Positions 1 to 47,776 of a stretch of 64,000 nucleotides of DNA are shown here, one piece after another. Each line of letters opens with the position of its first letter. Position 1 is the stretch's first letter. A program made the position numbers and the translations under genes. Source of the stretch: Acidobacteriota bacterium (GTDB taxonomy: Bacteria > Acidobacteriota > UBA6911 > RPQK01 > JAJDTT01). The stretch spans positions 3,360,001-3,424,000 of the forward strand of contig OZ253580.1 of NCBI GenBank assembly GCA_965263035.1, in the 5' to 3' direction. The notes under the pieces were generated by a model that was not told the origin of the DNA, ran no database searches, and was given only the letters and a program-made list of their open reading frames with translations.

Positions 1-1018
1 GGCGAACGACAAGGGTGTGTTTGCCGGAGCGCCGGGTCACGGGGGCGACCCCGCACAGACAACGCAAGGCGGCGTAATCTCTGCGGCGCAACGGATCGGA
101 GGCTTCCGAGAGCAGGGTGGCGAGGACGATTCGGCCGACCCCGGGCAGGGAGGCGAGGATCGCCACATCCCGCCTCGGTCCTGGGGACCCCGGCGCCGAC
201 TCGCACCGCTGGTCCCAAGCCCGGATCAGACGCTCGACCTGACGACCGGTGTCCTTGAGCTGGCTCTGCACCAGGGCGAGGCGCTCCGCGAGGCTGGCGA
301 CGTGAGCCACCGCCACCTCGGTGGTGCCGGCGGCGACGGGGAAGGCCGGAACCCGCAAGCGACGCAGGACTTCGCGGGCGTCGATTCGCCGGATCCGATG
401 GTCTTTCAACACCTTGGCGACCCGGCTCGGGCGCAGCTTCTGGGCGTCGTCCGGCGTCGGGGCCAGCTTCCACACTTGCAGCACCCAGGGCTCGGCGAGA
501 TTCTCGCTGAGGTCCAGGAACTGCGGATAGTAGCGCCAGAGTTGATCGCGGAGGCGGTTGAGAAGCCGGGTCCGCTCGCGGGTCAACTGCTCACCCAGTC
601 GTGAGGACTCGCGCAGCTGGATCACCTCAGAAGCGACGGGTTTGAGACGGCGCAAGCGATGGCCGTCGGTTCTCAGCGCGTCGGCCAGCACCCGGGCATC
701 GCGGCGGTCATCCTTGGCTCCGGCCGGCGAGAAGCGGTCGCGGAATCGATCCAGCTGCGTCGGATTGATGGCATAGACGGCAAAACGCCGCTCCATCAGG
801 AAATCCACCACCGGACCGTGGTTCACTTCAATCGCCACCGAGACGGCCTGTGCACTCGTTCCCGTCTGCTGCAGAATCCAGTCGGCCATCTGGGCCAGGC
901 CCGAACCGCTGTGCGGGAAGCTCCGCTGTCCCCGACAGGTGCCTTGCGCGTCCAGCACGCAGACTTGGTGCGCCTGGGACGCCCAATCGACTCCCACAAA
1001 CCATTGACTCTGTTTCAT
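1..1018 (-). CDS. IS110-family DEDD recombinase/transposase (3' end runs off the window)
   Basis: Not in the ORF track; translated by hand from the ATG at 1018 (GGAGG RBS upstream): MKQSQWFVGVDWASQAHQV...AIEVNHG...AKDDRRDA (DEDD RuvC-like), then ILASLPGVGRIV...CGVAPVTRRSGK (Tnp_20 domain with SG motif). Frame consistent at both ends, open to the window edge. Confidence 0.95.
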   Translation of the reverse strand, partial: MKQSQWFVGVDWASQAHQVCVLDAQGTCRGQRSFPHSGSGLAQMADWILQQTGTSAQAVSVAIEVNHGPVVDFLMERRFAVYAINPTQLDRFRDRFSPAGAKDDRRDARVLADALRTDGHRLRRLKPVASEVIQLRESSRLGEQLTRERTRLLNRLRDQLWRYYPQFLDLSENLAEPWVLQVWKLAPTPDDAQKLRPSRVAKVLKDHRIRRIDAREVLRRLRVPAFPVAAGTTEVAVAHVASLAERLALVQSQLKDTGRQVERLIRAWDQRCESAPGSPGPRRDVAILASLPGVGRIVLATLLSEASDPLRRRDYAALRCLCGVAPVTRRSGKHTLVVR

Positions 1019-1044
1019 CCCGACCCTCCCAGTGTTTAAATGGA

Positions 1045-1225
1045 CGTCGGGCCGCCGCGATTCGGATCGGTTCCTGTACTGGTGCTCAGAGGCGCCAACT
1101 TCCCACCGGGTCTCCATCGCGGCTACCGGCCGGGGCACGAATCCCCTCCAGGTGCTCCGAGGGCACAGGGACATTAGGGTCGCTCCCGGCCAGGTGGCCC
1201 TCTTCACCCACCGTGGGTGAAGTCC
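1045..1225 (-). ncRNA. Putative IS110 bridge RNA (5' hairpin, target-binding loop, donor-binding loop)
   Basis: Minus strand: hairpin CTTCACCCA-CGG-TGGGTGAAG (1202-1222). Stem GGCCGGG/CCCGGCC encloses an internal loop AATGTCCC...GTGC/GCAC...GGAGGG. Stem GCCGCGAT/ATCGCGGC (1116-1123/1054-1061) encloses an internal loop GGGAAGT...GTACAGG. Ends are approximate. Confidence 0.8.
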
Positions 1226-1251
1226 CTTAAAGGGTGCTCGTGAAGGGTACA

Positions 1252-1325
1252 GGGACATTTTTGTCCCCCATTCTTTCTTGCCCAAACGTCAATGGGAGTT
1301 CGGCGGTTAGAAATCGCCGCTCCCA
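1252..1325. repeat. Inverted REP doublet; the left REP is truncated by the IS110 insertion
   Basis: GGGACA-TTTT-TGTCCC at 1252-1267 resembles the intact REP at 47754-47776 but lacks its GGAG. An inverted GGGAGCGGCGATTTCTAACCGCCG lies at 1301-1324. Confidence 0.7.
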
Positions 1326-1404
1326 ACTCGAAGGGCTCGGGGCAGACGTCTGGAACGGTACTTGGCGTTTCCGATAGACTACCCGCTGAACCCAGGCGCC
1401 TCCC

Positions 1405-2229
1405 ATGCCGGCTCCGAAACTCGAATTCAGGAAAGTGACCGGTCATTGCGGCGCCGAAGTGCACGGCATCGACCTTGCCCGGCCGCTCGGCGCGGAGGTG
1501 GTGGACGTTCTCTCCAACGCACTGGCCGAACACTGCGTCCTCTTCTTCCACGAACAGTCCATGACTCCGGCCCAGCAGAAGGCGCTGGGCCGCCATTTCG
1601 GTGAATTGCACATTCATCCGGCGTGGCCCCGGTTGGTCGACGGCCATCCGGAAGTCATGGAAATCTACGCCGACGAGAACACCCGCCGGATCGCCGGGGA
1701 AGACTGGCATTCGGATGTCTCCTGCGACCGGGAGCCGCCGCTGGGGACGATCCTGCAGATGCTGGAGGTGCCGCCGGTAGGGGGCGATACCCTGTTCGCC
1801 AACATGTACGCGGCCTACGAGTCACTGTCGACGCCGATGCGGCGTTTGCTGGACGGAATGACCGCGATCCACGATGGAGAGTATGTCTACCGGGGCCGTT
1901 ACGATGGCGCCGACGATGAGGGGAAGACCTTCCCCAGATCGGAGCATCCCGTCGGCCGGACCCATCCGGTGAGCGGACGCAAGGCGCTCTTCGTCAACCG
2001 CCTCTTCACGACCCGTATCGTTCAGCTCTCGAAGCGGGAGAGCGACGCGGTCCTCGGTTTTTTGGTGGAGCACGCCGCGAGCCCCATGTTCCAGTGCCGG
2101 TTCCGCTGGCGTCCCGGATCGGTGGCGTTCTGGGACAACCGCTGCGCCCAGCACTACGCCCTGTGGGACTATTATCCGAACCGGCGCCGCGGGTTGCGCG
2201 TCACCATCAAGGGCGATCGGCCGCGTTAA
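1405..2229 (+). CDS. tauD: TauD/TfdA family Fe(II)/2-oxoglutarate dioxygenase (taurine dioxygenase-like)
   Basis: GAEVHGIDL, WHSD (HxD), GGDTLFANMYAAYE, HPVSGRKALFVN, FWDNRCAQHYA. Confidence 0.88.
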   Translation: MPAPKLEFRKVTGHCGAEVHGIDLARPLGAEVVDVLSNALAEHCVLFFHEQSMTPAQQKALGRHFGELHIHPAWPRLVDGHPEVMEIYADENTRRIAGEDWHSDVSCDREPPLGTILQMLEVPPVGGDTLFANMYAAYESLSTPMRRLLDGMTAIHDGEYVYRGRYDGADDEGKTFPRSEHPVGRTHPVSGRKALFVNRLFTTRIVQLSKRESDAVLGFLVEHAASPMFQCRFRWRPGSVAFWDNRCAQHYALWDYYPNRRRGLRVTIKGDRPR

Positions 2230-2235
2230 GGCGGT

Positions 2236-3876
2236 TCAATACTTGATCCGGAGTTGCACGCCGCAGAGAGTTGCCCCGTCGCGACCCACGTTTGCGTCTT
2301 CCGGGAGCGAGACCTCCAGCGTGTTCTCTCCGGTCCTCAGGGGCGGAGCGCTCAGCGCATAGGCGACCGGGTACTTGCACTCGCCATCATGCGGACTCTC
2401 CACTGACCCTTTCTCCAAAGACACGCCGTTGAGACGCAGCCGTAGTGGATCGTCTGCCGTGGGTCTTTGCAGCCTCAACTCCAGTCGGATCTCGGCCGGC
2501 GCCCCCGCCGGGGCGTTCGGGGCCAACTCATCGGCCACGGCCAGCGTGAACTCATGGGAGGTGCCTCTCTGGACCAAGCGCGGCAGAGGCGTCGGACTGG
2601 ACACGAACGCGTAGTGTTCGAAGGCCTGGGCGTCGAGGCCGTAGAGCTTTGTCTTTCCCGCCAGTGTCTCCGGCTCGCCGATCTCGTCGAGAGCCGCGTG
2701 CCGTTGATCCTTCACCTCTTGGGGACCGAACATGTTCCAGAGGTAGCTTCCGTCGGCTCCGGCTCGGCGCCAATTGGCCGCCAACGCCCTCATCTGTTCC
2801 ACTATGGAGCCCCTCAACCGGGTTCCCGTGTTGAAGCAGGGATAGACCAGCACGCCGTGCTTCTGAGCCGCCCGGGCGAATTCGGCCACGTCCAGCGAAT
2901 TCGGAGCGTACCCCCCGCCTGCGATCAGGATGTCCACCAATCCCTCCCGCGCCCACTGCTCCAGGTCCAGCCCGATTCCCCTGGAAAGATGGAAGCTGTC
3001 CGGGACCCGAGCGGCCAGAAGCAGGGGACGCCCGCGGCGAGTGGCGATCTCATCCATTGAGCGGCGAATGCGGCGCAGGAAGCCGGTCATGACGGCAACC
3101 TCTCCGTCGCCGACCGGCACTCCCCGCATCGATGAGCTGAAGTACACGGGCTGGCGGATGAAGTCCAGCTCGATTCCGTCGATGTCGTATCGTTGGCACA
3201 CCTCTTCGATGATCTCGAGCTTGCGCCGACGAACCTCCTGGTGGACGAAGTCCTGGGCCGTGACGTACAACTTCCGCTCGGGCAACATCCCGGTCCGGTC
3301 CACCAGGAACTGGGGGTGGTTCCTCTTCCAGTGGGTGATCCAGCGGTACCACATGCTGTCGTGCACGTCGTTCATGCGCAACGACGCGAATGCCTCCATC
3401 CCGTTAGCGTGGCAGAAGTCCACCACTACTTGCAGGGGACAGTGTCCGGCCTCGATCAGCGATTTGAGATTCGAGATCATGGGACCCATACGCGGGGCCG
3501 GATGGGCGTGGGCGGGGCCGAAGACCGGCTGGACGCTGCTGTCGTAGTTGGGCGCGTCCCCCTTGGTGATGGACCAGGCGACGGTATCGACCTGGGTGCC
3601 GGCCAGCCGTTTCAAACGAATTCCCAGGAACCCCTCCGGCGTGCTCGAATCCGCGTCGTGCAGGTCGCCGCCATCGTCATTGAAGATGATGCGCCGTGGC
3701 TTGGCGGCGGCCTCTTTGCGTGCTCGAACGACCTCCACCGCTACTACGGTACCCGCTGGGTCGGAGCTGTCGGCGGGCGCCTCAGGAGCCGGGGACTGGG
3801 TAGTGCAGGCCAGCGGCAACAGGACCAGAAGAAGACAACAGCCGGTCGAACGCGTGTACATAAGTGGCAACCTCAA
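2236..3876 (-). CDS. Secreted/lipoprotein glycoside hydrolase-like protein (GHL10-type TIM barrel); start may be 3861
   Basis: Hydrophobic signal ending LPLAC; RRIIFNDDG, FASLRMNDVH, RYDIDGIELDF motifs. Confidence 0.7.
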   Translation of the reverse strand: MRLPLMYTRSTGCCLLLVLLPLACTTQSPAPEAPADSSDPAGTVVAVEVVRARKEAAAKPRRIIFNDDGGDLHDADSSTPEGFLGIRLKRLAGTQVDTVAWSITKGDAPNYDSSVQPVFGPAHAHPAPRMGPMISNLKSLIEAGHCPLQVVVDFCHANGMEAFASLRMNDVHDSMWYRWITHWKRNHPQFLVDRTGMLPERKLYVTAQDFVHQEVRRRKLEIIEEVCQRYDIDGIELDFIRQPVYFSSSMRGVPVGDGEVAVMTGFLRRIRRSMDEIATRRGRPLLLAARVPDSFHLSRGIGLDLEQWAREGLVDILIAGGGYAPNSLDVAEFARAAQKHGVLVYPCFNTGTRLRGSIVEQMRALAANWRRAGADGSYLWNMFGPQEVKDQRHAALDEIGEPETLAGKTKLYGLDAQAFEHYAFVSSPTPLPRLVQRGTSHEFTLAVADELAPNAPAGAPAEIRLELRLQRPTADDPLRLRLNGVSLEKGSVESPHDGECKYPVAYALSAPPLRTGENTLEVSLPEDANVGRDGATLCGVQLRIKY

Positions 3877-47752: not shown

Positions 47753-47776
47753 AGGAGGGGACATTCTTGTCCCCCA
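47753..47776 (+). repeat. GGAG-type REP; unoccupied predicted IS110 target
   Basis: AGGAG-GGGACA-TTCT-TGTCCC-CCA; minus strand 47765-47754 reads AATGTC-CC-CTCC. Confidence 0.75.

Follow-up and report, generated by a model that had tools for sequence, protein, structure and literature searches.

What does the non-coding left end of an insertion sequence (IS) of the IS110 family encode, and how much of the element's choice of target can be read from the DNA itself? The question arises at one end of a 64,000-nucleotide (nt) stretch of an Acidobacteriota genome (contig OZ253580.1; in our notation G000:C1:3360001-3424000), hereafter the window, which carries such an element on its minus strand. 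A first-pass annotation, made from the letters of the window alone, had recognized there a bridge RNA, that is, an RNA whose two internal loops would read the target and the donor on either side of a shared 2-nt core, and had favoured CC as that core. We conclude that the left end (LE) of this IS110-group element very probably does encode a readable bridge RNA with a CC core. The conclusion is carried by the boundaries of the element, an exact 2-nt duplication of CC, guides that match and covary with the flanks, covarying stems and the family of the protein, all of which are observed here. Coordinates are those of the window and, unless stated otherwise, refer to the minus strand.

The first step is to know where the element begins and ends. 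The non-coding part of the LE spans 1251-1019 (233 nt) and opens with TGTAC at 1251, and the element measures 1,721 nt from TGTAC to the GGGAAGT that closes its right end (RE), which lies to the left of window position 1. Four full copies are present in the genome, namely copy A in the window and copies B, C and D (99%, 87% and 86% identity), together with one LE fragment. When the copies are aligned with their flanks included, the similarity of all four begins at TGTAC and ends at GGGAAGT; the sequences outside are unrelated, save for ...CC at the left and CCCCTCC at the right. The first bases of the element, TGTAC (1247..1251), form the right donor half (RD), and the left copy of the CC core sits at 1252..1253, where the flank ends in CC before TGTAC in 4/4 full copies. 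The right copy of the core adjoins the RE beyond the window. Counted from the stop codon, the RE extends about 240 nt to GGGAAGT; it ends CTTGACAAAGGGTGGGAAGT and is followed by CC-CCTCC.

The register of the core is fixed by an unoccupied site. We scanned nine loci of same-genus relatives for empty sites and found the anchor in three of them (the window's own locus, L013 and L014). L014 carries a different hairpin variant, without the IS. In L013, from genome G007, the flank is 100% identical over query positions 72-1047, and the unoccupied site reads ...AAAAATGTCCCCCTCCTAGG / ...GGGGGACAAAAATGTCCCCCTCCTAGGAAAG..., uninterrupted. This site holds five Cs, while the LE junction (ATGTCCC/TGTAC) holds three and the RE junction (GAAGT/CCCCTCC) four, which means that exactly 2 nt (CC) were duplicated. 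Every 2-nt placement of the core was enumerated against the empty site (CC at three positions, CT and TC), and a single one gives both junctions: target AAATGTC-CC-CCTCC with donor GGGAAGT-CC-TGTAC. The L013 site is thus left flank plus CC plus right flank, i.e. the insertion is scarless, with a duplicated short core and without terminal inverted repeats. The left target (LT) is AAATGTC (7 nt, 1260-1254). It forms part of a hairpin resembling a repetitive extragenic palindrome (REP-like), GGGGGACAAAAATGTC (1254..1269), whose 3' arm runs into the core and which in L013 is uninterrupted, with five Cs and then TCC.

The same counts bear on whether the core could instead be CT, as in IS621, with target AATGTCC-CT-CC and donor ...GTCCC-CT-GTACC, a register that the first-pass annotation had kept in play. 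Both junctions do hold a CT that is readable as the duplicated core. However, that reading needs an empty site with three Cs (ATGTCCCTCC) and L013 has five; moreover, CC follows all 47 RE ends found in the wider family, and all 12 classes of right target guide described below end in GG. The CT, TC and shifted CC registers were rejected, none of them reproducing both junctions from the empty site. CT is thus excluded, barring a change in length of the L013 site after divergence, and we give it hardly any chance. The preference for CC was therefore well placed, as was the forecast of the distal junction, GGGAAG-(CC or TT)-CTCC with a TTGAC-like -35 hexamer nearby: retrieved from the genome, it reads TTGACA-N13-GGGAAGT/CC/CCTCC.

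With the boundaries in hand, the guides can be read. In the first loop, the left target guide (LTG) is AAUGUC + CC (1175-1168), in the same sense as the left flank and identical to it (1259-1252; AATGTCCC in both places); it would pair with the bottom strand. The right target guide (RTG) is GGAGG + GG (7 nt, 1149-1143), the reverse complement of CC-CCTCC; it covers the core and five further nt. Here the annotation had stopped one base early, noting GGAGGG at 1149-1144 where the match extends to GGAGGGG; the target it derived, AATGTC-CC-CTCC, is accordingly right in its left half and core and one C short on the right (CCTCC rather than CTCC). In the second loop, the left donor guide (LDG) is GGUGGGAAGU (1107-1098, with GGGAAGT at 1104-1098), identical to the last 10 nt of the RE, which ends ...AAAGGGTGGGAAGT. 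The right donor guide (RDG) is GUACA + GG (1073..1079; GTACAGG at 1079-1073), the reverse complement of CC-TGTAC (1253-1247), and the donor of which only ...CC-TGTAC had been seen is now complete as GGGAAGT-CC-TGTAC. The TACAGG of the RDG is invariant across an alignment of 62 sequences. The 3' sides of the two loops are built alike, as GCACC-U-(7 nt)-A and GCACC-A-(7 nt)-A. By the rule of IS621, AU at 1141..1142 is the candidate handshake guide of the target-binding loop, complementary to donor positions 7 and 6 (T, G); it is AC in 4/11 close copies and in most of the family. The base after the core of the RDG is A in this genus and G in most of the family.

Words as short as these need care in a window of this size. 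AATGTCCC occurs three times against 2.49 expected (42/100 shuffles reach three), and CCTGTAC seven times against 2.61 (2/100 shuffles reach seven). By count alone, single guide words are not beyond chance. The finding exceeds chance because the words sit at the boundary of the element and covary with the flanks across copies and homologues. That individual 7-mers and 8-mers are no rarity in the window is also what could be expected if the region were merely a structured 5' leader of the transposase mRNA, acting on translation or stability, whose loops match the flanks by coincidence in GC-rich, repeat-rich DNA. What distinguishes a leader of this kind from a bridge RNA is whether the loops follow the flanks when the flanks change.

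Within the genus they do. There are 12 LE copies in four genomes (5 + 3 + 3 + 1), with six versions of the LTG, each behind a matching left flank (7-9 of 9 positions, read by eye from the alignment; three versions scored 8, 9 and 7 of 9). LTG AAUGUCCC follows the flank AATGTC-CC in two copies, and ACAGUCCCC follows ACAGTCC-CC in three. LTG AAAGUCCCC is found once behind AAAGTCC-CC and once, with one mismatch, behind AAAGTCG-CC, while AAAGCCGC stands behind AAAGCCG-CC in two copies and behind AAAGTCG-CC in one. AAAGUCGC (flank AAAGTCG-CC) and AAACCGC (flank AAACCG-CC) are each present in a single copy. The AAACCGC copy also differs in its RTG, GGAGCGG, and the adjacent repeat units end CC-GCTCC; its own RE is missing, and because the copy is truncated this guide can be checked only against the neighbouring units. 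In 9/9 copies whose RE was found, CCCCTCC follows it, matching the RTG that they share.

The correspondence extends to more distant relatives. A scan of one genome per species gave 297 stretches encoding relatives of the recombinase, of which the best 80 loci were used (58-82% protein identity; 61 distinct upstream sequences, 62 including the window). They come from metagenome-assembled genomes (MAGs) labelled Acidobacteriota, Vicinamibacterales, Bryobacterales, Rhodothermales, Longimicrobiales, Gemmatimonadaceae, Paracoccaceae and others. The end of the RE was located via the LDG in 47/62 loci. For the RTG, 18/62 were dropped (no recognizable RTG, or no RE in the locus), leaving 44; two more were dropped as IS-IS junctions in which CC-TGTAC follows the RE, and the rest form 12 guide classes. 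The reverse complement of the RTG equals the five non-core bases after the RE in 8/12 classes (matched right flanks include CCACAGG, CCATTTG, CCTTGTC, CCTTTTC, CCCTTCC and CCCTCCC), and the mean match of 4.17 of 5 compares with 1.94 +/- 0.38 for shuffled pairings. For the LTG, 42 sequences with an LE starting TGTAC (20/62 lacking such an aligned start were dropped) form 22 loop classes, and the best 9-nt window against the left flank scores 7.64 of 9 against 5.58 +/- 0.24. For each guide, 0/10,000 shuffles score as high, figures that overstate independence because the homologues are kin, which the collapse into classes corrects only partly. The covariation of loops with flanks among homologues that the annotation had proposed as a check is therefore present on both sides. 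Since CC follows every one of the 47 RE ends and each of the 12 RTG classes closes with GG, the whole clade shares the CC core. How many nucleotides separate the distal stem from the core-reading end of the LTG depends on the loop class (n=22): the gap is 1 nt in 11 classes, including the window copy, 0 nt in five, including sibling types in G000 and G001, 2 nt in four and 3 nt in two.

The RNA that would present these guides was drawn by hand on the model of a bridge RNA (a 5' hairpin, an outer stem, and two stem-loops each with a basal stem, an inner stem and a distal hairpin), because neither the single-sequence fold nor RNAalifold gave an adequate model. The single-sequence fold pairs parts of the guides with one another, and RNAalifold on 11 close copies gives a partly different inner structure with little covariation. 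The 5' stem-loop, CUUCACCC-ACGGU-GGGUGAAG, lies at 1202..1222, and all of its eight pairs form in 9/9 distinct close copies. The target-binding stem-loop (TBL; 1126..1193) has a basal stem of 1193-1185 with 1134-1126, the guides in its internal loop and a distal hairpin at 1166-1152. The donor-binding stem-loop (DBL; 1054..1123) has a basal stem of 1123-1116 with 1061-1054, an inner stem, the guides in its internal loop and a distal hairpin.

We tested this drawing by counting pairs against slid partners. In 11 close copies the drawn pairs form in 93.7% of cells, slid partners in 35.8-45.7%; a double change is seen in only 4/49 pairs because the copies are 91% identical. In the 62 family sequences the drawn partners pair in 84.3% of cells and slid partners in 36.9-49.1%; the covariation score is 0.245, compared with 0.121, and compensatory change is found in 28/46 pairs, which 1/500 shuffles reaches. 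These are counts of pair changes rather than probabilities. Helix by helix, the figures cover the distal hairpin of the DBL (97.4% of cells paired; compensatory change in 3/4 pairs), its basal stem (95.1%; 5/8), its helix 7 (90.9%; 2/4) and the basal and inner stem of the TBL (helix 4; 87.7%; 8/13). The outer stem (54.5%; 2/5) and the 5' hairpin, which is poorly aligned in the wider family (64.6%; 6/7), are not supported family-wide by these alignments. The annotated layout of a 5' hairpin and two stems with internal loops is thus kept both in close copies and, for the two stem-loops, across the family. Of the folding tests proposed with it, covariation of the stem pairs stood, whereas the single-sequence fold did no better than shuffled sequence.

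The idea of a plain 5' leader can now be weighed. An unremarkable fold energy and the lack of an Rfam match would suit it. Against it, the loop words follow the flanks through six LTG versions and across the family, the stems are either fixed or changed by compensation, and the far junction was predicted before it was seen. We regard a leader with coincidental matches as very improbable.

The protein encoded next to the bridge RNA belongs to the family expected of it. The annotation had reported the recombinase gene as missing from the supplied track of open reading frames; it is in fact present, starting at 1018 and leaving the window at position 1 (ATG at 1018-1016, preceded by GGGAGGG at 1030-1024, which resembles a ribosome-binding site). 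In the whole genome it encodes 415 amino acids (aa), with 339/415 codons inside the window. The N-terminal DEDD (RuvC-like) domain matches PF01548 (E 2.1e-36, residues 8-165), the C-terminal Tnp domain matches PF02371 (E 5.3e-11), and the NCBIfam model NF033542, 'IS110 family RNA-guided transposase', gives 188.5 bits against a cut-off of 140. Together with the covariation of guides and stems, these matches uphold the assignment to an IS110 bridge RNA. Among solved structures the recombinase matches only IS621 (E 1.3e-7) and ISCro4 (E 2.2e-7), in two short stretches, and is by sequence a distant, not a close, relative of the characterized enzymes. D11, E64, D104, D107 and S331 align with the catalytic positions of IS621, S331 (within ...TRRSGKH) falling on the Ser of ...YESGSS. 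In IS621 the counterparts of the four acidic residues are D11, E60, D102 and D105.

What the guides would be reading in this genome is a repeat. The target belongs to a REP-like hairpin, whose 3' arm it forms and of which the genome has many variants; the one used by the window copy has exactly five Cs before TCC. Of the four places where the exact five-C word stands, copies A and B occupy two. There are 22 six-C words and seven four-C words, all of them unoccupied, since the genome holds only five LE starts. For the exact sites of the C/D type, two are empty and two occupied. This occupancy is as expected if the LTG and the RTG jointly fix the length of the C-run, a comparison of sequences in which the numbers are small.

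More generally, the genome is full of short hairpin units, often in head-to-tail arrays, and different copies of the IS target different variants. One type reads GGCG(G/A)CAAGAAAG(C/T)CGCC followed by GCTCC, CCTCC or TGTCC, and a second reads GGGGGACAAGAATGTCCCCC(C)TCC. The third AATGTCCC of the window (47758-47765) is a four-C variant and not a predicted target. On the plus strand, the target hairpin with CCATTCTTTC scores as terminator-like (window 1252-1267), and from its sequence the IS may lie within the terminator of the plus-strand gene adjoining it on the left.

The RE has features of its own. It folds beyond shuffled sequence (L001 1029-1275, minus strand, to the left of window position 1; z -4.79, 0/200 as good) and holds a perfect 19-bp hairpin that ends about 10 nt before a -35 hexamer, TTGACA. 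The latter stands 13 nt before the end of the RE, and the LE carries a -10-like TACCCT at 1249-1244; in a circle the two would be spaced by 17 nt (13 + CC + TG). In 45/47 family loci a hexamer of the form TTGNNN or TTTACA precedes the RE end by exactly 13 nt, and TACNNT occupies LE positions 3-8 in 37/42 family LEs starting TGTAC. This conservation of position is a better argument for a split promoter than the promoter scans. If such a promoter forms, the hairpin may insulate it from read-through of the recombinase gene. The junction is also bracketed by a 6-bp subterminal inverted repeat, AAGGGT/ACCCTT, which encloses GGGAAGT-CC-TGT (the ACCCTT arm at 1248-1243, its partner in the RE).

Four public RNA-library runs were compared over 600-1500 as contigs only, from which strand, ends and level are not readable and in which DNA is possibly present. 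Exact contigs cover 1059-1140 and 1111-1224 in run X1, 1059-1283 in X2 and 1112-1335 in X3, whose RNA label is a guess. Those of X2 and X3 cross the LE junction into the flank, and the occupied site therefore exists in those samples. No contig falls on 600-940, inside the recombinase gene, in any of the four runs, a gap that by itself proves nothing. At most the contigs give a weak hint of RNA over the LE. In X1 and X2, which are two different studies, contigs start at the same position, 1059, on the 3' side of the basal stem of the DBL; this is at most a weak hint of an RNA 3' end, and a branch point of the assembly graph between IS copies would explain it equally well.

Put together, these features suggest the following mechanism, for which transcription, the ends of the RNA, the formation of a circle and catalysis are all inferred. 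The LE would encode a bridge RNA of about 190 nt with a 5' hairpin and two stem-loops with internal loops. The second loop would read the joined ends of a circular form, GGUGGGAAGU corresponding to the RE end and GUACA-GG to CC-TGTAC. The DEDD/Ser recombinase would bind the RNA and bring circle and target together, and strand exchange at the shared CC would leave a CC at either end of the insertion. A promoter for both the RNA and the recombinase would arise in the circle from the TTGACA of the RE and the TACCCT of the LE.

Several observations weigh against a guided system of this kind. Taken alone, the sequence does not fold beyond shuffles (z -1.32; 20/200 fold as well), and an Rfam search of 1-3000 at permissive thresholds returns only five chance-level matches, none of them in 1019-1251. 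The RTG classes are imperfect in 4/12 cases, one scoring 0 of 5 and one 2 of 5, and the kinship of the homologues softens all of the shuffle tests. A consensus promoter scan finds nothing in the integrated state. This fits a promoter that exists only in the circle; however, TACCCT agrees with only 3/6 of the -10 consensus, so the circle promoter would fail the rule of the scan too. The scan likewise calls nothing at a natural IS-IS junction in the homologue locus L094; in the homologue L051 it gives one match (TTGACG, 17 nt, AATAAT), whose position relative to the junction is not assigned. The X2 contig reaches 32 nt into the flank, further than the junction-promoter model would lead one to expect. 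As the protein is only distantly like IS621, the rules of IS621 may not carry over in detail. Finally, two features of the donor loop sit awkwardly: the LDG is followed by UG and not CC (UU in most of the family), leaving the core to be read there at best by U-G wobble, and the A after the core of the RDG can pair with the donor's own T7.

These last two features raise the further possibility that the RNA is readable and the lineage itself crippled or weakly active, with a donor loop that reads the core poorly and a handshake base that locks onto its own donor; the copies would then be relics, or would have been moved in trans by a sibling element. The handshake base of the DBL is A here, where most of the family has G, and in IS621 the change G166A is reported to cut recombination strongly (PMC11208158). 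The truncated copies G007_a and G004_a, which have no RE, and a 162-nt solo LE in G000 point the same way. On the other hand, copies A and B are 99% identical, carry intact 415-aa frames and occupy different sites; a near-identical genome with a 100% identical flank has no element at the window site; and three copies in G001 share the handshake A yet occupy three different sites. All of this points to recent movement, and we consider a crippled lineage unlikely.

Truncated and rearranged copies are nevertheless common. For G007_a and G004_a no RE was found though more flanking DNA was examined. Two G007 copies (L023/L027), one of which is G007_a, lack 13 nt at LE positions 9-21, between two ACCCTT repeats. 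The solo LE (G000:C1:2558570-2558731, plus strand, in L005/L032) comprises LE positions 1-162; its LTG, AAAGUCGC, matches its flank, and the genome has 33 exact empty sites of that type. It ends ...CAGTGT-CC straight into CCTCCCAAT, where an intact copy reads ...CAGTGT-CC-AAGAAC. To judge from these sequences it looks like a deletion that joined a pseudo-donor 'GT-CC' in the DBL hairpin to the RE junction of the element itself, AAGT-CC-CCTCC, in other words an aberrant guided excision. In the homologue loci L051 and L094, CC-TGTAC directly follows the RE, downstream of the coding sequence, which amounts to a donor-like RE-CC-LE junction within the chromosome; such an arrangement would reflect either tandem copies or one copy inserted at the end of another.

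Does the system differ from the known ones in its rules as well as in its sequence? A broader proposal, which we put forward only tentatively and hold somewhat less probable than its contrary, is that these elements form a widespread clade of bridge recombinases without prior experiments, with a CC core and rules unlike those of IS621. It would use a full 7-nt right guide on both loops; its left donor guide would read the core by wobble only, or not at all; its LTG would be usable in registers 1 nt apart between sibling copies; and it would discriminate single-nucleotide differences in the length of the C-run (five-C sites 2/4 occupied, six-C 0/22, four-C 0/7). Among the best 80 loci the clade spans Acidobacteriota, Vicinamibacterales, Bryobacterales, Rhodothermales, Longimicrobiales and some Proteobacteria. 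If the proposal is true, it would provide a natural CC-core system and a natural retargeting experiment among repeat variants within one genus. In the literature we found no text joining IS110 with a 'CC core', a search that did not extend to the figures and supplements of the 2024 survey (Durrant et al.), which list thousands of orthologues and may already include the clade; the accessible part of one large comparative preprint does not mention core diversity.

What the locus demonstrates more directly is that an IS110 bridge RNA is legible from raw sequence and that the reading can be tested blind, as both the far junction and the empty site agreed with the prediction. The mechanism has been known since 2024 and stays unchanged; the CC core, the 7-nt RTG and the natural retargeting are useful details. 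To the known examples it adds a well-documented natural one whose core is CC and whose right guides are 7 nt, sibling copies within one genus whose target loops have drifted after different hairpin variants, and an apparent specificity for the length of the C-run to within one nucleotide. Such elements may serve as starting points for bridge recombinases with other core preferences.

The closest point of comparison is IS621 of E. coli (Durrant et al. 2024, PMC11208160; Hiraizumi et al. 2024, PMC11208158). Both systems pair a DEDD + Ser recombinase with a bridge RNA located in the LE, upstream of the gene. In both, a 5' stem-loop is followed by the TBL and the DBL, the left guides are in top-strand sense and the right guides are complementary, with the core inside the guides (the layout set out in PMC11208160), and target and donor follow a 7 + 2 + 5 arrangement. 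The TBL handshake dinucleotide, here a candidate, starts with A and would pair with donor position 7, and both elements have their target in a palindromic element that is repeated in the genome. The promoter of IS621, split across the RE-LE junction, may have a counterpart here. Among the differences, the core is CC rather than the CT of IS621, the natural RTG is 7 nt rather than 4 nt, the LDG does not spell the core, and the DBL handshake is A rather than G. In addition, the protein (415 aa) is distant (E 1.3e-7), and the RE, with its roughly 240 nt and 19-bp hairpin, is not short. With an LE of 233 nt and an RE of about 240 nt the element also departs from the long LE and short RE of the IS110 group, a descriptive tendency rather than a mechanistic need, and its subterminal inverted repeat is 6 bp where 2-3 bp is reported for the group.

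Other characterized elements share parts of this picture. IS622/ISCro4 (bioRxiv 10.1101/2025.05.14.653916) also recognizes 14 nt of target and donor and uses handshake guides; its core, unlike that of the present element, is CT (or an engineered GT), and it is closely related to IS621, whereas our protein matches the ISCro4 chain at E 2.2e-7. The IS1111 group has the same recombinase family and subterminal inverted repeats, and its guide RNA is also named seekRNA in a review. There, however, the RNA lies in the RE and the repeats are 7-17 bp; membership of that group was rejected here, the guides being in the LE and the repeat AAGGGT/ACCCTT only 6 bp. In their choice of site, the nearest parallels are ISPpu10 of Pseudomonas putida (bioRxiv 10.64898/2026.03.19.712850) and ISPpu9 (PMC12288879), IS110 elements that likewise insert into many copies of one intergenic repeat, a GC-rich stem-loop beside or over the guided sequence. 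What sets the present system apart from them is its host, an Acidobacteriota MAG lineage, and the fact that the 3' arm of the hairpin is itself the left target and core.

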